A DNA stretch of 64,000 nucleotides from Paraspadella gotoi (lineage: Eukaryota > Animalia > Chaetognatha): contig CM119263.1 of assembly GCA_051294375.1 (NCBI GenBank), positions 9,974,432 to 10,038,431 of the forward strand, read 5' to 3'. Of this stretch, positions 4,851 to 58,319 are shown piece after piece. A program made the translations under genes and the position numbers. The notes beneath the pieces are model-generated. The model worked only from the letters and a program-made list of their open reading frames with translations, did no database searches and was not told where the DNA came from. Each line of letters opens with the position of its first letter. The first letter of the stretch is position 1.

Positions 4851-7800
4851 AAAGTTTACTTTTTCTCATTATTTTCACTGAGGATGACATACTTATAAAC
4901 TTATTCACCAATTATCTCAATTATGAACATATAGGGTAGTGCGGGGTAATTCGGAACACTTTTGGAAGTAATCAAATTTTCGCATAGTAAATTTATTTTA
5001 AAAAAAAGTATTCATTTTTATCCTGCGGCCCCTAGAGGTCGCATTTTTTAAAAAAATAGAAAAGTGTTCCGTTTTACCCCACCCTGGGGTAAAACGGAAC
5101 AGTTGATAAATTATGTATAATTTTTTATAATATTACAAAAAATAATAACTAAAACACTATTATTCAAAACATAAAGCCTTTCATTGATGTTTTATGTATA
5201 AAAAAATGAAAATCTTATATTTTTAAGTGCTTAAAATGATTTTTAATACCATGTTCTCAGTTTTGCAAAATTATTGAATGACAATAGATACCAAATTTAT
5301 ATATATTTTATTTATCGTATTTTTGACTGAGTTTTTTATTTCCTTCCATTCCTGCATTTTGTCCCCAACTTCCTTTTCCTTGCCCCTTTTTTTATTTCCA
5401 ATGTTATTTTTTCTTATTCTTTTTATTTATCATTTATATTTATCTTTAAAAATTTAGCTTATTTTTATTTCCTTTTCAAAATATTTTTATTCATATTATT
5501 TTTATATTAATTTCATCTTAATTTTTTCTTTTACTAATTTTTTAACCATATTTAGGTGTTAAATTCCATTCCAAACTTTTTTATTGCTAAAAATAGATTT
5601 TTTTACTGTATTATTAATAGTATAATAATTTTTTCCACCTAATTATATAAAAAATGTTGCAAACTCTTATTATTACTGAGTAAATTATCACTAAAACTTT
5701 ATAAAAAGCATATTAGGTAACACAGAATACTTACTTTAGAGGTGTTCCGTTTTACCCCAATTTAATTGTAGCTATATAAAAAATAATTGAATTATTTTTT
5801 CGAAATAATATATACAATAACTAAAAAATAGTAGTCTCGTCTATCAGATATGAATATTCCATAGTCATATTACGTCAAATATGACAGTGACAGAGGCTTG
5901 AAAACGACTACTCAAAGACGAAATTTGACTAGCAGCTTTGAAATTGCTGCTGCAGCCGAATGCTGTAACTGCTGTAATGGAAAGTCAAGTTGGTGAAATA
6001 TTAAATGAACAAAAAAAATTATAAAATATCTATACACAATTTTTCTATTTCATTTTATATGTCAATGTTCCGAATTACCCCGCACTACCCTACTCGAACT
6101 ATATCAAAAATAAAATATACTTTTAATTAATATTCAACGTACTAAGTTTATAACCTGAGGATAATATCCCTGTTGAAGGGCCGGCAAATTGGGAGTAGGA
6201 ACTTTCGAAAACGAATTTTGCATTTGGGGCTGAGTCCGTGAAGCTTCCGTTCCTTCCAAATGCGAAGGAAAATGAGCTAATTGAGATCCAGCAGCTTGAG
6301 ATGAAGAACAATTCTGGGACAGTTGCAGAGTTTGTTGGTGCAGGGACATAGGGCCCGGCGTCGCCGAGTAAGAATTAACTACGTTCGCTTGAGCCTAAAA
6401 GAAAAATAATTTTAATGTAGTACAATAAGCAATTAATAAGATTTCCGACAGTTCTTAGAATAACTTGCATCTAATAAATACGTGCTATTTATGTATATAT
6501 ATTATATATATATACTATTCAGCTTTTAGGCAGCAACAACAACGAATACCTGCGAATGTACAGAGTGCGCTGCCTGAGCCATTTGTGCAACTTGAGCTAT
6601 TTGAACGGCCTGAGCCGCCTGAGCAGCTTGAGCCGCCTGAGCGGCTTGAGCGGCCTGTGCAGCTTGCGCTGCTTGTGCTGCTTGAGCAGCTTGAGCGGCC
6701 TGAGCAGCTTGCGCTGCTTGAGCTGCCTGAGCAGCTTGAGCCGCCTGAGCAGCTTGAGCCGCCTGAGCAGCTTGAGCCGCCTGAGCAGCTTGAGCCGCCT
6801 GAGCAGCTTGAGCCGCTTGACCTGCCTGAGCAGCTTGAACTGCCTGAGCAGCGTGAACAGCATGCGCAGCTTGAACAGCCTGAGCAGCTTGAGCAGCATG
6901 AGATGCCTGAGTTGCTTGAGCTCCCTGCGCTGCCGGAAACGCCAGAGCAGTCTGAGCGGCTTGGGCTTGCATAGAATACACATCACTGCTTCCTCCACGA
7001 TTGATGACAGGATATCCATAGGAATCTGATGGGATGAAAATTTTTTAAAATAAAATGATCCCTCCAGCAACAAAGTGCTATTTAATGTAAGTGGGACAGA
7101 CGGACAGATATACCGACCGACCAAAAAGTGACTCCATAACTAATAAAACTGTGGTAAGTCGCCTCAACGGCATATTTTTAGTCGGATCTCGGCTCTATAA
7201 TCTACTTCGTCGGTCCTACCCAAAATCGGTATGTCAGAACATCAAATTATGATAAATTATGCAAAAATATTAAAAGTATAGTTATCTTAGCAGACTTTAC
7301 TTTCAAAGAAAATTAATGAAAAAATCTTAAAAGCACAATGATACATTGCTTAATATAAGTAAGGGGAAAAAAAGAAGATTGATGCAATGATAACGAATTA
7401 TTGATGCAACGATAACGTGCTCATTAGAGTGGAGCACTCAAGAACAAAAAAATTATTTGAATGATCGAACAACGATATTTAGATGTGAGATAGTATGATT
7501 AACTAGTACAAAAAATATTTTGTTCATATTGTTTTAAGAACAAAATAATAAAATATGAAATATTTGTAATAATATTCTTATAAAATAATAAATTTTAAAT
7601 ATAATTTTTTCAAAACTTTTAATAAACATTCAGATTCTTCATAAAAAGTAAAATCAAAAATATAAAACATGTTATCAAAAATTCTGTCATCTTCAGCATT
7701 TAAAACGGGAAAAAAGATAAAAATTCAGAACTTTTTTATTCTCTGTAATAAAAACTTATATATGTTAAAACGTTTTGGTCATTTTTTGCGATCCAAACAT

Positions 7801-10800
7801 ATAACATATAAAATATAATATAAAATAATATTAAATGAATGGATAATTTTTATATTGGTTGTACCAATTTCATAACATATTTATCTAAGTTTCTTAGTTT
7901 TTTACGGCGAATCCAAATCTGTTCTTAAAAATAAAAAAAAATCTTAAAAGCATAAGGATCGTCACAATTGCATAAGAAAAATCTAGATTGATGACAAATT
8001 TTGATACTAAAAAATATAAAATTTGAGAAAAGAAAATTTATTTTATTAACTAGAAAGAAAAATTCTATTTTGCGATTGTCAATTAAGAAAAATAATAAAG
8101 TACCAAGGAAAATTAAAGTTACAGTTTCTGAAAAATAAAAGAAAAAAAATATTATTGTCAAAAAATAAACTGATCAGCTGACGCAGCCCCTGAAAAAAAA
8201 ACGAAATAAAAACCCAATGTTGCGATAGCAAAATGATAACATGCACGAACGCAATGTCTAATTTTATGAGTTAAATCCTAATTCAATTTTTTTTTAAATA
8301 AAGACGCAGAGAGAGAGAAGAAAGAGAGAAACAAAAAAAAGAAAGCAAAAGGCAGCAGCAGAAACAACAGGAGAAAAGAGAGAAAAAGAAAGAGCCCCTG
8401 CAGAGCCAGCTGCAGACTCGTTTTTTTCCGATGAATAAGCACCTGGGAAAAGAGAGAGAGAGAGCTACATATAATTAAAGGAGAAAAGAGAGAGAGAAAG
8501 AGACATAAAAATAAAATAGAGGATATTTATTTGTTTTTATAAAACGTAAACAAAACATTTAATAACTGTCCTGACCCAATTTTAAGGACATCAATGATGA
8601 GAAGCTGTAAATAAATTTTCAGCTTCATACACCCAAATTTAATCATGAAAAAGGCGAACTATAATTTGGAACGCCAACGACGACGACTACATCACTTATG
8701 CCAAAAGCGTTACAAGATCGTCGCAATCGCTTTCAAAAAGAAAGAGTAATATAAATAGTAAAACTATAAAGAAAAATCTTAAAAGCATAAGGATCGTCGC
8801 AATTGCATAAGAAAAATCTGGATTGACGACAAATTTTAGACTAAAAAAAAATCAAATTTGAGAAAAGAAAAATAATTTATAAACAAAGAAAAAGAAGAAA
8901 AGAATAAATATAAAGAAAGAATAAAAAGGAAAAAAAGAATAAAGGAAAGAAAAAATAGAAAGGAAAGAAAAAATAGAAAGGAAAGAAAAAATAGAAAGGA
9001 AAGACAAAATAGAAAGGAAAGACAAAATAGAAAGGAAAGACAAAATAGAAAGGAAAGACAAAATAGAAAGGAAAGACAAAATAGAAAGGAAAGAAAGAAT
9101 AGAAAGGAAAAAAAGAATATAAAGGAAAGAAAGAATAGAAAGGAAAAAAAGAATAAAAAGGAAAGAGGAATAAAAAGGAAAGAGGAATAAAAAGGAAAGA
9201 ATTAATAAAAAGGAAAGAAGGAATAGAAAAGAAAAAAGAATAGAAAGGAAAGAAAGAATAGAAAGGGAAGAAAGAATAGAAAGGAAAGAAAAAATAGAAA
9301 GGAAAGAAAAAATAAAAAGGAAAGAAAGAATAGAAAGGAAAGAAAGAATAGAAAGGAAAGAAAGAATAGGAAAGAATAGAAAAAAAGAAAGAATAGAAAG
9401 GAAAGAAAGAATAGAAAGGAAAGAAAGAATAGAAAGGAAAGAAAGAATAGAAAGGAAAGAAAGAATAGAAAGGAAAAAAATAAAAATAAAAATAAAGAGA
9501 GAGTGACGAGAAGAAAGAACGAAACAAAATCTCGATGTTGCGATAGCAAAATGATAACATGCACAAATGCGAAGCCTAATTTTACGAGTTCAATCATTCA
9601 ATTTTTTTTTTTTAATAAAAACTCAGAGAGAGAGAGAGAGAGAGAGAAGCCAAATCCTTTTTCAGACGAATCAGCAGCGGCAGAGGCACCCAGAAAAAAA
9701 GAAAAATCAAAAGCCAGCAGCAGAAGCAGCAGGAGAAAAGAGAGAAAAAGAATAAGCCCCTGCAGAGCCAGCTGCAGAGAAAGAAATCAAAAGGCAGCAG
9801 CAGGAGAAAAGAGAGAAAAAGAATAAGCCCCTGCAGAGCCAGCTGCAGACTCGTTTTTTTCCTTATGATTATGAATCAGTGATTAGGGAAAAGAGAGAGG
9901 GAGAGAGACATGTAATTAAAAGAGAAAAGAGAGAGAGAAAGAAATATGAAAATAAAAGAGAGAAAATTTGTTTGTTTTGATAAAACGTAAATAAAACATT
10001 TAATAACTGTCCAGACTCAATTTTAAGCACATCGATGATGAGAAACTGTATAGAAATTTTCAGCTTCATACACCAAAATTTAATCATCAAAAAGGCGATC
10101 TATAATTTGGAACGCCGACGACAATGACGACGCCACTTATGGGCAAAAGCGTTACAATATCGTCGCAAACGCTTAGCGATTGCGACGATAGTAAAAGATG
10201 GAATTCCGGTGCAGTGCGTATTAGTTGAGTGATGAAAAAATTGAGCGATTGAACATTATTTTTTTGCTGCCTAAGGATAAGTAATTAACTAATTTTAAAT
10301 CCTTTTAAAACATTTTTTAAAACATTTTTTTTAGCATAGTAGTATAATAAATTCAATTATTTATGTAATAATATCCTTGTGTTAAGTTCCTTTCATTTCG
10401 TTGTTTCTGCCTTTCCTAATAATATTCTTATAAAATCATTAAATTTCAAAATATTTTATGAAATTAATCAAATGAAATGAATTGAATGAAATGATGTCAA
10501 TAAAATTAATTGAATGAATAAAATTAAATTTAAATTTCTTTAATTAAAATAAATAAAAGAATTGAGATAAACAAATTAATAAATCGAGTAAAAAAATTTA
10601 AAATTATGAACTGAATTAATTAAATTGAACGAATTTAATTAATTAAAAAAATTGTAGGAGAGATAAAGAGATAGAAAATGAAAGAAAACGATACAATGAG
10701 AAATTAAAAAATTTTAAAAGCATAAGGATCGTCGCAATCGGATAAGAAAAATCTGGATTAACGACAAATTTTGATACTAAAAAAAAAAAATTTGAGAAAA

Positions 10801-13800: not shown

Positions 13801-16800
13801 TTAAATAAATAATTAATGTAGTTGACATTTACATTTGATATAAAAAGAAAAAAGCATAATCAAATAGTGAAACAGGTTCCATCGAAACGGATGAACGGAT
13901 GAACATTAGAGTGGAGCACTGGGGAACATAAATTTTATTTGAGTGAACAAACAAGAATAATTAAAGATAGTATGATTAAGGAGTACAAAAAATATTTGGC
14001 TTATATTGTTTGGGGAACAGTATCATAAATTACAATATATTTATAGTAATATCCTTATAAAATTATAAATTTTCAAAATAATTTTTTTAAAATTTTTATT
14101 AAAGATTCTGATTTTTTATAAAAAGTTAGATAAAAAAAAAATATATATATATGTTGTTAAAAATTTCAATATCTTCAGCGTCAAAAAATTCTTTACTTTT
14201 TTATGGTTTGTAATAGAAACTATTATGATAAAACGTTTTGGTCATTTTTTGCAGCTTTAACCTAAAAATATCATATAACATATTTTACAAAAGTTTTTCA
14301 GTTTTTTCCGGCGAATCCGAAATTGTTCTTAAAATTAAAAAAATATTATTTTGAAATTTTATGATTTTTTAAGGATATTACTATAAAAAAATTTTAATTA
14401 ATGATACTATTATACAAATTTTTTTGGAAAAAGGACTTAATTATTTTTTATTACATATACAAAAGCAGCAAAAAAATATCGTTCCATCGCTCAATCTTTT
14501 TATCACTCCACCCTAATGGACATACAGATCATTTTTTTTAAATAATTTTTTAAAGACAGTTTGAGTTTAGTTTTGACTGATGAAGGCTTGAAATAAAGCC
14601 GAATTATGTCAAAATAAAATCGTAGTCAAAACTAAATTCAAACTGTTGAAGAGACAGTAATTATTGATAAGTGTTAATGACAGAACCGTTCAATGTAAGC
14701 AGTCCCTGAGCTTCGGATCAGGCTGTAACGCCATGTTACAGGCGGGTTAAGCGCCCCGTCCCTCTTAACTGCCAGACAACCACCGGGCTAGAACACCGGA
14801 CCTTTGGGTTGGGAGGCGAATGACTTGCCTCCGGCACCAATGGCCACTGATGAATGGTTGGTGGATTTTAGTCCACCATACTGTCTCTAATCGTCCCAAA
14901 CAACGAAAAGAAAGGATTTATATCACAATGAATATTTTTTTAATAATTCGATGTTCTAAGATAATATAAGTTATAGAAGGCTTCATATTATAAAATGAGG
15001 TACTGTGGCAGCAAGACTTAAAGCTGCCTCACTGCTGTCCGTCCTCAGCCTCGTCTCAATGGCAGAGCAGGCTAAATCATCTCATTCCATCCGTGCGTCC
15101 CGGGTTCAATCCCTGGGTATCCCGGTTCTGGCTTAAATGTGACGGTGCCGGTATAAACATGCCAGTGACAGGAGGCGGTCACTGAGGGTCCGCAGCCCCT
15201 ATGCCAGTTGGTGAGATACCCCGCGCCCCGGGTATCACAGGCTATCCTCCCGTTGCCATAAGTGGTGAGCCCTACTCTCGAACACGCAACCGCTGCGCAC
15301 CGTGCGCCCACGCTTACGTCGCTTAGGGTATGCATATCACGCCTATGCCCTACTTCTCTGGTAACGCTCCAGACTCGCTCGCTCGCTCACCCGCTCGCTC
15401 TCACTATAGCAATGAGATCAAAACCTTCTCTCAGACATCTCCTCAGGATTGAGGCCCCTGTGGAGAAGTCTGGTGGGGGGATCCTGTGGCAGCAAGACTT
15501 AAAGCTGCCTCACTGCTGTCCGTCCTCAGCCTCGTCTCAATGGCAGAGCAGGCTAAATCATTTCATTCCATCCGTGCGTCCCGGGTTCAATCCCTGGGTA
15601 TCCCGGTTCTGGCTTAAATGTGACGGTGCCGGTATAAACATGCCAGTGACAGGAGGCGGTCACTGAGGGTCCGCAGCCCCTATGCCAGTTGGTGAGATAC
15701 CCCGCGCCCCGGGTATCACAGGCTATCCTCCCGTTGCCATAGTACCCCTTTTTATGACCAGAATCTGTCCTCACCAAACTAACCAATTATGGTGGACTAA
15801 AATCCATTGGTGCCAGAGGCAAATCATTCTCCTTCCAACCAAAAGGTCCGGGGTTCAAGCCCAGTGGTCACCTAGCAGTTTAGTAGGACGGGGCGCTTAA
15901 CCCGCCTGTAACTCGGTGTTACAGCCTGATCCGAAGCTCACTGTCTCTTCACAATCAAAATTTATAAAATTTTACATACACAGTAGGGTGAAGTGAAAGT
16001 TTGGAATCAAAATTTAACAGTTATATCTTAAAAACTATCATATTAGTGAATACTAATCTATAATTATTTTTTTTTACAAATATAATAGCCCAGTCAGCTT
16101 ATTTAGTATATAATACTACCCTTATATAATATTAAAATTTCAAAATAGTTTTTTTTAAATTCTGAGAACAGATTCCTCATAGAAAGTTGATAAAAAAAAT
16201 ATAAACCTTTTTTAAAAATTATGTCACCGAGTAGGTTAAATCTTTAAAAAACTATATTTTGAAGCTGGAAATTAAAAATCGGTATCTTAAAAATAGTTTT
16301 TTACATTTTTGATCAACTTAATGAAAAAATTTTTAAAAAAGAATTATACTTTGTTATATCAACTTTTTGCAAGAAATCCAAATCGATCTTAAAATTTAAA
16401 AATTTGCATTTTGAAATTTTAGCCTATTATATACTTATTACTATATAATAAGTATAAGTATATATATAAGTGGTGCCCACTAATGTATAAAATTAAAAAA
16501 TAAATTTACCAAAGTATTTTTATTGGTTTTTATTTTCATGCTTATATACTAAATTTTAATTTTCTAAAATTTTATCATTTTCACATCACTCTAATATACA
16601 GTGGAGATCCTCATTATTATTATTAGTAAGAAAGAAAATTCCAATGCCCGCTAAGAAATTGTTTTGCTCCCTCCGTTCAATCGCCGGTCGCAAAACGTTA
16701 CCTTATTTGGAAGTATTTTTAGAATTATTTACTTTACAAATGTAAACCAAATTTTCTCTCTCTCTTGCCGTATAAAAATGAATGCCACTTTGTACAATTA

Positions 16801-19800
16801 GCCAATTCGATTCCATTCGCTTTTCTGATTTCAATAAATCGATTCATCTCATTTTGTTCGTCATTTTTATCTCGACCACCTCCACTAAACAGTCCTAATG
16901 ACAATATAAATGCAAGTATCAAGGCGAATTTTGATATTTAACCCTTGACAGGAGATACAGGGTCCTGGGGCTGAACCCCTGGGGGCCTGAAAGGGCTAAA
17001 AAAATTTTTTTCAGATTTTAATATTTTTAGTATCATCAGGTGCATTGACGTCTTAAACATGTAAAAAAGAATTTTAGAACTAAAATTAATGAATTTTTAA
17101 TAATTAAGCATTGTTTTAACAAGCATTGTTCATCGTTTTACTTCTAATTTTCCCAAATTATTCCAAATCTGATTTGAACAGCTGATGTTCATGAAGATGA
17201 AAATTAAGGTAAACTAACATTTTTGAGGTAATAAATACGTTTTTGTAGAAAAATAAACGTCGTGCAACTGTTCAAAACAAAAATAATGGAATAATTTGAA
17301 AAAATATTTGATCATTTTTTGTCCCAATTGGTGACCCCCCAGGGGGCCCATATCTCGGCTCAGGGTTCAAATATTGAAATTCGCCTCGATAGTTCTATTT
17401 GTATTCACATAGGGATCGTTCATACCAAATTTCAATAAATTTGGTCCAATAGTTTTCTCGGAACGTGTTCTGGTAACAAAAAAGGGGTACCTTATTTTAT
17501 AATATGAAGCCTTCTGTACTTAGGGACAAGATTATAGGTGGCGACCGACAAGCAGATCCGGCTAAAAAAATATTTTAGTTTTAAAATGAAAGACTATTTT
17601 TAAGGCAACTTTTTTCCACTCATTGCAAAGTCAAATCATAACCAATCAGTAGTACATATAGTATAATTAGTATATATAAATGATTTTGTTTTTACTACAA
17701 AAAAAATCTTTCAAATTAAAAAAATCTTCAAAGGTTTACAAATGACGATTTTTTTCTAGCGGTGGGTTGTGGTGCGTCACCTTGGACGTCAGTTTTGCAT
17801 ATATCAGATACTTTTAAAAAAGTTAAGAAATTTTCTATCGAAGGATATATGGTGAGTTAACTTTCATTAATGAGTTTCTAATTCTATGTAATAGATTTTT
17901 ACTTTGTGCTATCCGTTCTGGCTCCAGGGGTATTGTCATTTAATTTTTTTAAAAATTAATAATTATGGATAGACGACAAAAAAATTCAAAAACGGGCCCG
18001 ACCCTCTACGAGTCTACCTTGATGTCTCGATAGCGAGGGACGTGGACCTCTAGAGCGACTCATCACTGGTCGGGTTGTTCCACGAGGCACAGAGGAACCC
18101 CGCCATCCGGACGTTGGTGGACGGTAAGCGGAGGGACGGCCGGTTCTTGGGCCCACAGGTCGCATTGGAGTGGCTCCCGAAAGATATCCTCCGCGCAAGG
18201 CAGGATTTTCTGTTTGATTTCTCTGACCAGCTTTCACGGATTGAATTACTTGAACCGTCTGTATTTAAATAAATTAGCATGACTTTATTCTTGTATCAAG
18301 TAATAATTTCGATGGCAAAATGAATATTGCTATTCATATTGCTCGGTTAAAAAATAATGAAATACAACCTGAACATCTTCATCAGCAGGGGCCAGACCAC
18401 TGATACTTTCTTGACCCTGTCTTCCGCCACCTCCGCGTCCGCCACCTTTGAAGCTTCGACCTCGGTAACCGCTGCCGCCTCCGCTGAGGTAATCAAAAGA
18501 ACCGCAGCCGCCACCGCCTGAACCGTGATCTTCGTTTCTCGGCTCAGCATACTTGACTTCCACCTAAGTACGTAAAAAGTATGTACAATGTACAATTGTA
18601 CATAATTAAGTTTTGCCTAATCTTGGGTTTTCATCAGTTTTCTATGCCTTATGAATTTCTAAATTATTTTATTATAATACCAAATTTGGCTATTATCTTA
18701 CGACTAAGATTCTAGGAGAACCACTGACTTGCTTGCCGCAAATAGTGACAAATCTTTGTTTGAGGCAATTCTGAGCGGACGAATAATCTTCGAACGATAT
18801 GAATCCGAATCCCCGAGATTTGTTTTGTTCATCCGTCATTACTTTAACATCAATGATGTTTCCTGAGAGAATTTGAGTCATATAGAATTTAAAGCAAAGA
18901 CTGAACACTAGAGGACGAGATAACAATAGTGAAGTGTCGAAATTTAACAGATTTTTCGTATTCCATACCGAATCCGGAAAAAGCTTTTTGAACATCATTT
19001 TCACTAGCCGACGTCGGGACACCTCCAAGGAACAACCTTCTCAATGCTGGATCGTTCTCCGGCTGGAAAAAAAAATCGTTAAAGTATAGTTATCTCGCCA
19101 GACGTTACTGTCAAAGAAAATAAATAAAAAAATCCGGAAAAAAAAGATTGATGTAATTATTGATGCGATGATACCCCGTGAGCCAAATCCAGTGACACGA
19201 AAGAAATCATTGCCTTGGTTTACTGCATCGACATAAACAACTTTTTTTATTAGATAGAGAAAAGTTTGACGTTTTTTCTGTTAAAATTTTATTTAAATTG
19301 ATCTTTATTAACAACTTTAATTTTTTTTTTTTTGGCGAAGATGTCAAAGTCGTCAAATTGATGGCTCTTTTGAAATATCTTTGAAATATTATGCCACTAT
19401 GATAGGGAAGCAAGGTACTCAGCGAGTGAATAAACGAGACAGAGAGAGTCTTGATTGAAAGCTGTCATTATCTCGTAAGAGTGATGGAGGCTTTAAACCA
19501 CCAAAGACTATCTAAAGTTAGGGGTAAGATAATTTAATTATTAAATGGATGGATAATTTTTATATTGGTAGTACAATTTCATAAAACCATTATTTATCGG
19601 CAGTTTTGTTTATTAAAATTCGATAACATTGTTAGTAGACATTGTTATAATCCTTTCTTTTCGTTGTGTTTGTATCAGGAAAGACAGATTTTTGCATTTA
19701 ACAACGATTTTTTATTGACAGTTTTAGTCGTACATGTTTTGACTCTCTTTAAGAGTTGAGAGTAAAGTAAAGAGTAAAAAGAGTCGAAACATGTACAACA

Positions 19801-21372
19801 AACTGTCAATAAGAAATTGTTGTTAAATGCAAAAATCTGTCTTTTCTGATATCATTGTTGTAATGTACCTAATTATCCCTTTCAGCAAAAAAACGACCTT
19901 CGCTTCTTCCTTTTTTCTTTATTTCTTTCTTCCTCTTTATTTTCCCATCGGCCGCAGAAATGTTTAAAATTTACCAGCGCCGAAACAATCATCAAAATTA
20001 AGAATAATCACCATATCCATAACTCATTCTAAGTTATACATAAGGGGCACGAAAGCTTATTTATTAAATAAATGGATAATTTTTATATTGGTTGTACCAA
20101 TTTTATAACATAACCCTAAAATCTACCTATAACCTTAAATTTTTTCCCGAACTTATAAACTTTTATTACTTATTACATAATTAATCAATTAGTATTAGAT
20201 AAAATAAGATAAGAATAAATGAAATTATGGTGGACTAAAATCCACCAACCATTCATCAGCGGCCATTGGTGCCGGAGGCAAGTCATTCGCCTCCCAACCC
20301 AAAGGTCCGGGCTTCTAGCCCGGTGGTCGCCTAGCAGTTAAGAGGGACGGGGCGCTTAAACCCGCCTGTAACTTGGTGTTACAGCCTGATCCAAAACTCA
20401 GGGACTGCTTATATTGAAAGGTTCTGCCACTAACACAACAATAATTACTGTCTCTTCAAAATCTTATTTAATCAAATTCATAAACTTCGCTCTTTGATTT
20501 TTAATTGGACGCTGTTACCCCATTTTCACGAAGGCCAATAGTTTTTTGAATAAAATAGTCATTACAGAAGAGACAGTAATAATTGTTATGAGTTAATGAC
20601 AGAACCATTCAATATAAGCAGTCCCTGAGCTTAGGATCAGGCTGTAACACCGCGTTACAGGCGGGTTAAGCGCCCCATCCCTCTTAACTGCGAGGCGATC
20701 ACCAGGCGAGAACCCCGGACCTTTGGGTTGGGAGTAGAATGACTTGCCTCCTGCACCAATGTCCGCTGATAAAGGTTGGTGGATTTTAGTCCACCATATT
20801 ACTTTTAATTCATTAAGCATTTACGTACTCCCTTTTGTCGAGGGTTACAAGCTTTGGGATCGATCAATTTTCCATCCACTACATGCTTGGTTACAGCAAG
20901 AACCTTCTGTACGGTATTGATGTCTGGAATGAAAAAAGGTTACCTTGGCAATGTCATTGACTGTCAAATGCATACAACTCATATTATTTTCAAAAAATAC
21001 CTTTGAACGTAACAAAACCAAAACCACGGCTTTGGCCAGTTTCTGGATGTCTCATCACACTGACATCTGTAACAGGCCCATACTAAAAACAAATTGATAA
21101 GTATTAACATTAAATATAAGTGCATACAGAATAATGGTAAAATTATTTAACGTGAAAAGGTCACGCGACAGAAAAACAACTTGACCTTACCTTTTCAAAA
21201 TACTCTTGTAAAGGGTCTTCAAAAGTGTTCCATCCGAGGCCACCCACAAATATTTTGGCCGCATCTATGACAGGTAGCGGAGTTACAAGCGACGATTAGC
21301 AAAGACAACATGCTAAAAAAATACTTGGCACGTACCCGATACTCCCGCCGCGTACTTCTGCTTGCCAGCCAT
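1..21372 (-). CDS. DAZAP1: DAZAP1/Hrb27C(hrp48)-like RNA-binding protein, two RRMs plus a long Gly/Pro/Ser/Gln/Ala low-complexity tail; 3' end lies outside the window
   Basis: Manually spliced GT-AG exons with consistent phases: 21372-21336, 21264-21191, 21082-21001, 20923-20829, 19062-18969, 18862-18729, 18563-18369, 18258-18018, 13252-13115, 12983-12910, 12102-11838, 7025-6550, 6394-6155, 2702-2583, 354-207, 93-1. RRM1: KIFVGGL, SRGFGFVTF, HVVDGKLIDPKACNPR (DAZAP1/Hrb27C-type). RRM2: RLFLGGV, KSRGFGFISF, VEVKYAEPR. The RRM exons are secure; joining of the tail exons rests on phase compatibility and composition. Confidence 0.85.
775..1486 (-). mobile_element. DINE-1/HINE-like (Helentron-associated) element, family 1, partial
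   Basis: Terminal palindrome TATCGTCGCAA...TTGCGACGATA next to an A-run; body shared with other copies. Confidence 0.75.
2111..2154 (-). ncRNA. Minimal type I hammerhead ribozyme (Penelope-like element type)
   Basis: AACG-CTGATGA-A-GGCTT-gaaatg-AAGCC-GAAAC-AT-GTC-TGTT: intact core, stem III reduced to the palindrome ACATGT. Confidence 0.8.
4011..4056 (-). ncRNA. Minimal type I hammerhead ribozyme (Penelope-like element type)
   Basis: GACG-CTGAAGA-A-GGCTT-gcatcta-AAGCC-GAAAC-AT-GTA-CGTT; a stem-II-less inverted remnant follows at 4089-4114. Confidence 0.78.
4934..6090. mobile_element. Non-autonomous TA-flanked TIR DNA transposon (Tc1/mariner/pogo-type MITE)
   Basis: Perfect 25-bp TIR GGGTAGTGCGGGGTAATTCGGAACA, TA on both sides, internal TGTTCCGTTTTACCCC subterminal repeats. 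Confidence 0.88.
6560..6965 (-). repeat. Coding 9-bp tandem repeat encoding (Ala-Ala-Gln)n, about 40 units
   Basis: GCTCAAGCT/GCTCAGGCG-type units with synonymous variation inside exon 7025-6550. Confidence 0.9.
7935..8731 (-). mobile_element. HINE-like family 1 copy
   Basis: AAAATCTTAAAAGCATAAGGATCGTC(G/A)CAA end (subTIR plus small hairpin) and shared body. Confidence 0.8.
8773..10190 (-). mobile_element. HINE-like family 1 copy expanded by an internal 18-bp purine-rich minisatellite (about 8925-9480)
   Basis: Both family ends present; about 30 units of AAAGAATAGAAAGGAAAG. Confidence 0.8.
10706..11443 (-). mobile_element. HINE-like family 1 copy
   Basis: Both subTIRs (ATCGTCGCAATCG / CGATTGCGACGAT) present. 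Confidence 0.8.
13909..14513. mobile_element. TA-flanked MITE
   Basis: TA-GAGTGGAG ... CTCCACCC-TA ends; related copies start at 7426 and about 10220, and a similar element spans 15986-16591. Confidence 0.55.
14647..14880 (-). mobile_element. Solo LTR-like element, family A (tRNA-like head plus twister-like fold at 14698-14772)
   Basis: TATGGTGGA...CTGTCTCTTCA, 4-bp TSD CTGT, inserted into a hammerhead-bearing repeat. Core on minus strand: GA-CGG-GGCGCT-TAA-CCC-GC-CTGTAAC..GTTACAG-C-CTGA-TCCGAAGC-TCAG. Confidence 0.85.
15128..15207 (+). ncRNA. Twister ribozyme, type P5 permutation (5' LTR, family B)
   Basis: CTGGC(P5)-ttaa-ATGT(P2')-GA-CGG(T1')-TGCCGGTA(P1)-TAA-ACAT(P2)-GC(T2)-CAGTGAC..GTCACTG(P3)-AGGG-TCCGCAGC-CCCT(P4/L4)-at-GCCAG(P5). 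Predicted cut between U15154 and A15155. Confidence 0.85.
15609..15688 (+). ncRNA. Twister ribozyme, type P5 (3' LTR, family B)
   Basis: Identical to 15128-15207; predicted cut between U15635 and A15636. Confidence 0.85.
15788..15951 (+). mobile_element. Solo LTR-like element, family A, internally deleted
   Basis: Same termini, TSD CAAT (15784-15787 / 15952-15955), B-box GGTTCAAGCCC. Confidence 0.85.
16885..17517. repeat. Fold-back dispersed repeat whose end (TACAGAAGGCTTCATATTATAAAA) recurs at 14972, 29121 and 35802
   Basis: Internal inverted arms about 16915-16975 / 17335-17395; provides the empty site for the 15004 insertion. Confidence 0.6.
19648..19852. mobile_element. Palindromic Penelope-like relic (hammerhead core deleted)
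   Basis: AATCCTTTCTTTTCGTTGTGTT followed by inverted arms carrying GAGTCGAAACATGTAC. Confidence 0.6.
20226..20458 (+). mobile_element. Solo LTR-like element, family A
   Basis: TSD AAAT (20222-20225 / 20459-20462); tRNA-like segment GCGGCCA...TGGTCGC; L4 loop mutated to TCCAAAAC. Confidence 0.85.
20566..20798 (-). mobile_element. Solo LTR-like element, family A
   Basis: TSD TTAC (20562-20565 / 20799-20802); lies inverted relative to the 20226 copy. Confidence 0.85.

Positions 21373-25228: not shown

Positions 25229-58319
<33,091 letters not shown>

Follow-up and report, generated by a model that had tools for sequence, protein, structure and literature searches.

Can a self-cleaving RNA whose P1 segment is too short to close on itself complete its fold with a second copy of itself? 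This question is raised by a window of 64,000 nucleotides (nt) from the chaetognath Paraspadella gotoi (assembly GCA_051294375.1, contig CM119263.1, positions 9,974,432 to 10,038,431 of the forward strand; positions below are counted within the window). The window is AT-rich, with 2-kb bins of mostly 28-42% G+C, and carries short G+C-rich inserts. One of these, element B, is 738 bp long and has two 257-bp long terminal repeats (LTRs) that lie 481 bp apart, are 99.6% identical and have TG..TA ends. Each LTR carries a twister ribozyme fold with the 8-nt P1 segment TGCCGGTA, which is found at 15146-15153, as the original prediction had stated, and also at 15627-15634. We propose with moderate confidence, guided by folding models, that this word is a self-complementary hinge and that cleavage is assisted by a strand-swapped dimer, without strictly depending on it, and would be faster than in a lone copy. 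The features of element B are the following.

15000-15003, + strand: target-site duplication (TSD) GTAC, 4 bp; second copy at 15742-15745
15004-15260, + strand: 5' LTR, TG...TA ends
15060-15112, + strand: A box (15060-71) and B box (15103-12) of tRNA-like type, located upstream of the ribozyme; likely RNA polymerase III (Pol III) promoter, box motifs as in PMC10886601
15128-15207, + strand: type-P5 twister fold of the 5' LTR, E value 0.0018 with a model built from twisters outside the window
15146-15153, + strand: P1 segment TGCCGGTA of this twister, between GACGG and TAA
15263-15272, + strand: primer-binding site (PBS)-like TGGTGAGCCC, directly after the 5' LTR; near-identical start in element C
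15472-15481, + strand: run resembling a polypurine tract (PPT), preceding the 3' LTR
15485-15741, + strand: 3' LTR, 99.6% identical to the 5' LTR
15609-15688, + strand: type-P5 twister fold of the 3' LTR; cleavage is predicted between 15635 and 15636 and would give a unit of 481 nt
15627-15634, + strand: identical P1 segment TGCCGGTA in the 3' LTR, the predicted pairing partner

By their anatomy, element B and the second element of the window, C, are Helenus-like miniature terminal-repeat retrotransposons (TRIMs), with two LTRs, a length below about 1 kb, PBS, PPT, tRNA-derived boxes and a 4-bp TSD. Both are non-coding mini LTR elements with one predicted ribozyme per LTR; a 134-codon open reading frame (ORF) with a GTG start spans 15262-15666 in element B. 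C has the same build as B, with a less clear B box. The LTR element ends are TG..TA and TA..CA, and a 4-bp TSD was found in all six insertions checked (B, C and four inserts of a family called A). Papers are cited below by their PubMed Central numbers, and statements on them refer to the available parts of their text. Each B LTR carries both boxes, and its A box TGGCAGAGCAGG and B box GGTTCAATCC fit the motifs of PMC10886601 by eye; ARAGORN detected no tRNA gene in the tRNA-like region of element B. Runs of four T occur on the opposite strands of B, C and A, and none on the sense strand of B, which is thus consistent with Pol III transcription without demonstrating it. Contigs from public runs stack on B and A thousands-fold deeper than on single flanked pieces; this depth is no copy number and supports the wording 'high-copy' only.

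A type-P5 twister fold in the LTRs

Modelling indicates that the LTRs carry a type-P5 twister fold, predicted to self-cleave at U^A. In the 5' LTR of B it comprises P5 (15128-32/15203-07), P2 (15137-40/15157-60), GA (15141-42), T1 (15143-45/15190-92), T2 (15161-62/15195-96), P3 (15163-84) and P4 (15186-88/15197-99), with the predicted cut between 15154 and 15155. A structure scan of the window with strict rules found a type-P5 twister at both B LTRs and at no other site; the copies of C, A and D and the decayed ones were recovered with relaxed rules and a profile. The L1 strands GA and NAA, flanked by P2, are present in the B, C and A copies. P2 measures 4 bp in B, 3 bp in C and 2+1 bp in A, while P5 has 5-6 bp and a different sequence in each of the three. 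T1 pairs as CCG/CGG in A and B, as CGG/CCG in C and as CCA/TGG in D and E: two of its three pairs change on both sides and 90.5% of the cells are paired. T2 is paired in 13 of 14 cells, and three of the four pairs of P4, which has an 8-nt loop, change on both sides. Over the seven window copies, rows that are few and related, 10 of 17 pairs change on both sides, including pairs in T1, P2 and P4.

A covariance model was built from 30 P5 twisters of phages, metagenome-assembled genomes (MAGs) and metagenomes, with no window sequence in it. The window copies are its top 11 matches, five of them with E values of 0.00013-0.002; C is weaker. The same model aligns the B P1 as four pairs with a zero-base loop. 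Its long-P1 parse of family A was dropped because it loses P2 and breaks T1. The Rfam models gave no twister match in the whole window (best, twister-P1, 18.8 bits against a threshold of 67.2 in the 141-nt search; none for A), and Rfam matches to microRNAs and small nucleolar RNAs in the window were regarded as chance.

The failure of every Rfam twister family to reach its threshold could point to a twister-like relic that no longer cuts and whose P1 has eroded. So could the deviations from the consensus: a weak P2 in A, a mismatch next to the core in C and a changed L4 base in B. We consider a relic highly improbable. The core nucleotides are kept, P2, P4 and T1 covary between families, the families are high-copy and homogeneous, and the twister tolerates many imperfections (PMC11662667).

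Self-complementary P1 words

The other copies that bear on P1 are listed here.

39421-40164, - strand: element C, 744 bp, two LTRs with twister, TSD GTGT; P1 TCCTTGGG at 40024-40017 and TCCTAGGG at 39536-39529
14647-14880, - strand: solo LTR of family A (A1) with twister fold, P1 GGCGCT at 14755-14750, TSD CTGT
15788-15951, + strand: solo LTR of family A (A2), internally deleted, P1 GGCGCT at 15892-15897, TSD CAAT
20226-20458, + strand: solo LTR of family A, P1 at 20351-20356, TSD AAAT
20566-20798, - strand: solo LTR of family A, P1 at 20674-20669, TSD TTAC
38660-38790, - strand: 'family D', an inverted LTR start fused to an LTR's 3' half; P1 TGCTGGCA at 38778-38771, without GA or T1 partner
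38207-38290, + strand: copy E, a decayed D-related twister with core mutations; P1 TGTCAGCA at 38226-38233, centre not palindromic

According to the original prediction, 6-8 self-complementary bases separate the T1 partner from the UAA in every family. We could confirm this for B, for A (GGCGCT precedes TAA in the four copies at 14755, 15892, 20351 and 20674) and for the C word TCCTAGGG. It does not extend to TCCTTGGG, to copy E, which the original prediction overlooked, to the decayed copies or to D, whose word TGCTGGCA does stand before TAA as claimed, in a rearranged copy where the inverted LTR start replaces GA and the T1 partner. D and E probably belong with B, as each is one or two C>T or G>A changes away from a CCGG centre. 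Two old A-like copies, near 27550 (27445-27593) and near 34280 (34257-34343), have mutated cores and non-palindromic P1 centres. The independent central 4-mers are three: CCGG, CTAG and GCGC.

At their ends the P1 words offer one or two complementary pairs, which are predicted to be unformed in the monomer; a full helix arises between two copies only. Isolated hairpins of the words are uphill by +2.7 to +5.7 kcal/mol (+5.0 for TGCCGGTA of B), which agrees with the earlier statement that intramolecular pairing amounts to 1-2 bp at most, and the 6-nt word of family A allows one G-U pair at most. Self-duplexes are worth -10.9 (B), -11.0 (C, TCCTAGGG), -9.8 (D) and -8.3 kcal/mol (A). The B and C words differ at six of eight positions, and their adjacent central pair is CG in B and UA in C. 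Being adjacent, the two central bases are unable to pair within one strand, so that this double change could be used by an intermolecular helix alone. In the P1 columns three of four pairs change on both sides, including the central CG/UA, a weak signal from seven related rows. Variation among B copies affects the outer pair of P1 (15146 T>A in about 5%, 15153 A>C in 1.3-1.6%), and no variant of at least 1% is listed at 15148-15152.

How unusual are such P1 segments?

P1 measures 6-8 nt here versus 15-26 nt in 44 of 44 well-paired P5 twisters from phages and MAGs (15-26 nt in 26/26 from a first viral scan, 17-21 nt in 13/13 from a third and 18-23 nt in 5/5 from MAGs). These are distinct matches with P2 paired 4/4 and a P4 extension, a rule that dropped 8 of 34, 4 of 17 and 15 of 20 matches, respectively; the control twisters share a search pattern and related sequences, are no random sample and include no known eukaryotic P5 twister. 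A fourth viral scan gave five loci, one of them convincing (L271, P1 of 21 nt). When metagenomes were scanned for short P1 only, 27 distinct parses resulted. Three had P2 4/4 and the P4 extension: a 12-nt GAAA hairpin, a 16-nt hairpin and the locus L191 with a P1 of 5 nt. The remaining parses were dropped as type-P1 twisters or chance. The metagenome scan for the B/C family yielded no locus. The P1 segments of the window are among the shortest natural ones encountered in these scans.

The twister fold of L191 (positions 397-441), of type P5 and with the P1 TTCGA, is located upstream of the start of an ORF on its metagenome contig. A similar fold in L182, which comes from that data set too, has a 4-bp GAAA hairpin as its P1. 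The metagenome matches L167, L172, L184 and L193 resemble the rice-type P1 twister and are preceded by G-rich or TTAGGG-like sequence. On viral contigs a loose short-P1 pattern matched at least 120 loci; T1 3/3 together with P2 4/4 occurred in 0 of 125 parses among the matches listed, and these were regarded as chance.

The chance of finding three palindromic tetraloops depends on what is granted. It is 0.00025 with free loops, 0.016 if a C-N-N-G mini-loop is allowed to account for the outer loop pair (centre only, three independent words) and 0.063 if A and B share CG by descent (centre only, two independent words). The observed duplex strength is reached by 4.4% of hairpin-compatible 8-mers and by 3.0% of 6-mers. 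Within the LTRs, equally strong self-pairing words number 1 of 251 8-mers in C, which is P1 itself, 8 of 251 in B and 3 of 230 6-mers in A. Taken together, the sequences are suggestive of more than chance self-complementarity in P1 without proving it, the pattern having been noticed post hoc on three words only.

Energy models of the monomer and the swapped dimer

Monomers and strand-swapped dimers were compared by nearest-neighbour models, whose omission of both pseudoknots and kinetics tells against leaning on them for the pairing. The P1 hairpin is predicted to be paired in none of the four window monomers and in 30 of 30 control twisters. Swapping strands gains -15.1 (B), -13.4 (C, TCCTAGGG) and -11.7 kcal/mol (A), with a control median of -3.95 and 3 of 30 controls at -11.7 or below. 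Left unconstrained, the dimers of B and of A fold as a strand-swapped twister. A core-compatible monomer fold costs 4.1 (B), 8.9-9.2 (C) and 7.8 kcal/mol (A), where the control median is 3.0 and 5 of 30 controls lie at 5 or above; in the competing misfolds predicted for the monomers, the free P1 or neighbouring bases mispair with the core. For the full B transcript the swapped fold is better than two monomer folds by 4.3-5.7 kcal/mol. For the whole transcripts of B and C, the global minimum is far below either constrained fold. On our own reasoning about helix geometry, we set aside as unlikely a dimer that is joined by a full-length kissing loop and does not swap strands.

A model for assisted cleavage

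In the model that we propose, a Helenus-like mini-retrotransposon would be transcribed by Pol III from its LTR, and in the type-P5 twister of each LTR the P1 would have shrunk to a hinge of 6-8 nt. In the swapped fold the 5' half of one copy (P5, P2, GA and T1 partner) would complete the other copy's core. Cleavage at the two U^AA sites would release the 481-nt unit, one swapped core being built from both ends of this future unit, which would pre-arrange them for ligation, and a host ligase would then close the unit into a circle. As each circle would contain a single ribozyme, it would be recut more slowly. The twister fold is predicted to cost 10-11 kcal/mol in the circle and 8.5-10 kcal/mol in the lone LTR, without special masking by the circle; a slow monomer would thus be a natural way to keep circles closed.

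A stricter version would have the two LTR ribozymes cut only together, so that only full-length RNA leads to a lasting circle and lone ribozymes stay nearly silent. On the models at hand we regard such strict gating as unlikely. The restriction to full-length RNA is the weakest step: computed dimer strengths are nanomolar or tighter, so that abundant solo-LTR RNAs could pair in trans. If strict gating held, the twister would have arrived by independent evolution at its own equivalent of the double hammerhead, here in a Pol III mini-retrotransposon of an animal. Should pairing control cleavage, dimer gating would be a general solution for retroelement ribozymes and no peculiarity of the hammerhead; the twister P1, called dispensable yet conserved, would gain a regulatory job, and the element would hold a compact switch sensing two copies in one RNA. 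Even with active monomers, these P1 segments would define the minimal linker of the P5 twister.

Evidence against the model and alternative readings

Several observations weigh against assisted cleavage, the first of them from the literature. A twister without P1 cleaves at an almost wild-type rate (PMC5408937), and in natural type-P1 twisters the length, stability and imperfections of P1 are without effect (PMC11662667); both agree with the caveat of the original prediction that the twister tolerates a very short P1. Because an open P1 is dispensable, a palindrome does not imply dimer dependence. Swapped dimers of the hatchet ribozyme form by way of a 4-nt palindrome which its catalysis does not require (PMC7357161). 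Further, the helix III of the hammerhead builds its core, whereas the twister P1 is reported to be dispensable, so that the logic of dimeric hammerheads cannot be transferred automatically.

Other adverse points come from the sequences. One of the two C LTRs carries TCCTTGGG, and either TCCTAGGG or TCCTTGGG may be the norm of the C family. The claim that two copies pair over their full length agrees with the strong duplexes computed for TGCCGGTA, TCCTAGGG and the A word, and fails for TCCTTGGG, whose self-duplex, with two central U-U mismatches, is worth just -5.9 kcal/mol. The word TGTCAGCA of copy E is not palindromic either. In every copy with an intact core and an 8-nt word, this word is compatible with a C-N-N-G loop, so that the third pair could be intramolecular. 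The invariant P1 centre of B says little, because only 11 of 181 B sites had listed variants, and in family A the central CpG of P1 varies (1.35% and 0.29%) like the CpG of T1 (1.4% and 0.9%). B has a C at 15193, where at least 90% of the 30 control twisters have an A; no variant of at least 1% is listed at this site among B copies. L191 combines its 5-nt P1 with full P2 and P4.

The models add their share. With TCCTTGGG the swap gains just -8.4 kcal/mol, the dimer of C, when unconstrained, takes a fold other than the swapped twister, and in the full C transcript the swapped fold differs from two monomer folds by -2.3 to +0.9 kcal/mol. In the full B ensemble the P1 segments of the two LTRs pair with a probability of 0.007, and after the 5' ribozyme is finished some 400 nt are still to be transcribed before its partner follows.

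In a rival reading each twister works alone, and P1 is a minimal linker that consists either of 1-2 bp with a loop of 4 nt or of a C-N-N-G mini-loop. The palindromes would then merely follow from the hairpin being short and G+C-rich, and the element would resemble a plant LTR retrozyme. The dispensable P1 and the example of L191 speak for it, as does the conservative null of only 0.016-0.063. Moreover, TCCTTGGG in one C LTR and TGCTGGCA in D retain the hairpin pairs and weaken the duplex, and by our own geometric reasoning a linker of 5-8 nt can span one helix width. Against this stand the P1 hairpin, predicted to be unformed in every window monomer, the 6-nt word of A with its single possible G-U pair, and the outer pair of B, which is half of a 2-bp stem and the most variable minority site. 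Single-copy natural P5 twisters retain long P1 hairpins (44/44), and cleavage without P1 is called inefficient in PMC8501958. The tests without P1 used an open P1, and aptamers attached to a closed P1 switch twister activity up to about 35-fold in cells (PMC5052635), so that a tight loop may matter. We regard unaided cleavage as possible, though doubtful.

The self-complementarity could also have been selected for RNA-RNA pairing and not for catalysis: as the 3' end of the linear unit, the palindrome would dimerise the RNA for packaging by a helper Gag or hold the ends for ligation, the monomer being already active. The same statistics of self-complementarity would follow, the predicted 481-nt unit ends in the P1 word, and precedents exist in the hatchet dimer and in Ty1 RNA, which dimerises through short palindromes (PMC6844567). 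Yet the position of the word is, in all families, precisely the P1 hinge and not just any place in the LTR, and B has other equally strong self-complementary words (the 8 of 251) that packaging could use. We find this explanation improbable.

The dimeric twister first put forward for this locus thus retains the self-complementary centre, the lack of a P1 hairpin in the monomer and the swapped fold favoured by the models; the reported dispensability of P1, the hatchet precedent and the small number of words, three, count on the other side.

Relation to known ribozymes and retroelements

The type-P5 twister (PMC5408937; Rfam clan CL00120) has the same order of parts, P5-P2'-GA-T1'-P1-UAA-P2-GC-P3-P4-L4-P5, and the T1 and T2 pseudoknots. 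The copies described here differ from it by a P1 of 6-8 nt without stable hairpin and self-complementary to its centre, by their place in paired LTRs and by scores below the Rfam thresholds.

Hammerheads with a helix III of 1-2 bp and a palindromic loop need tandem dimers (PMC4209133, PMC7229834); minimal hammerheads working as dimers were also the precedent named in the original prediction. These dimeric hammerheads, from newt and axolotl repeats and Penelope-like elements, likewise have a 1-2 bp helix with a palindromic loop by the cleavage site; they are transcribed as at least two copies and are proposed to spare monomer circles. We found this set of features (1-2 bp stem, palindromic loop by the cleavage site, multi-copy unit) in both B LTRs, in A and in one of the two C LTRs, and not in copy E. 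As the core is of the twister type here, the two systems may work alike without belonging to one class. The hatchet homodimer (PMC7357161) offers a similar case of a short palindrome driving strand exchange between two ribozyme copies, but it is of another class, is not needed for cleavage and has no LTR context. In the open literature (subscription journals not covered) we found no natural dimeric or dimer-dependent twister and no twister in an LTR; PMC5408937 mentions twister dimers as a crystal artefact only.

Among retroelements, the Helenus TRIMs (TRIMp3; Kojima 2024, PMC10886601) are the same kind of short non-autonomous LTR element with A and B boxes in the LTR, PBS and PPT, and animal Helenus share the 4-bp TSD observed here. 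The available text of that paper contains no match for 'twister' and one for 'ribozyme', and no twister was seen in the animal consensus sequences of its Data S1, read by eye in the part available. In the LTRs of the wasp elements Helenus-2_SyJa and Helenus-2_SyUm (Data S1), a hammerhead core CTGATGA ... GAAA lies downstream of the tRNA-like part, matching the place of the twister here, suggesting from sequence that Pol III TRIMs have recruited two different ribozyme classes; this core is not discussed in the available text. Plant LTR retrozymes (PMC4918200) are also non-coding LTR elements with one self-cleaving ribozyme per LTR and a 4-bp TSD. Theirs is a type III hammerhead, while here we find a twister fold and a likely Pol III promoter; their circles were shown experimentally, whereas the unit-length RNA and its circularisation are predicted from sequence here.

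Other observations in the window

A1, B and A2 place three twister-bearing inserts within 1.3 kb (14647-15951), and two further family A copies, A3 and A4, are arranged tail to tail with 108 bp between them (20226-20798). An inverted, partly deleted piece of a B-family LTR (40188-40340) sits inside an LTR of the D/E family, directly upstream of element C; such elements seem to insert into one another. Inside C, at 39770-39870, a GGGTACGC...CCTATGCCC motif is carried by three repeats, each about 31 nt long, and one related motif occurs in the internal part of B (15327-15351). This common motif is possibly a packaging or helper-recognition signal.

A 17-kb inverted repeat (33826-51019), whose arms are 93-100% alike, lies between the N gaps 32480-32489 and 52099-52123. 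Indels are scattered over its right arm, where a C ribozyme near 44830-44860 is garbled. The repeat is likely an assembly fold-back artefact that doubles everything inside it. Among the doubled features are the C and D copies: in this repeat, those at 45334 and 46092 are mirror images of the ones at 39536 and 38778 and are not independent.

Beside A1, a long AT-rich hairpin (14556-14646) has CTGATGA...GCCGAA-like letters in its loop and is possibly a hammerhead-like repeat or one resembling a miniature inverted-repeat transposable element. Sequence related to it recurs near 2070-2150, and 19715-19809 holds another hairpin of similar kind. At 6507-7000 and 8800-9500 there are tandem arrays whose periods are 9 and 18 bp, and a dispersed AG-rich repeat family is present in about seven copies in the window.

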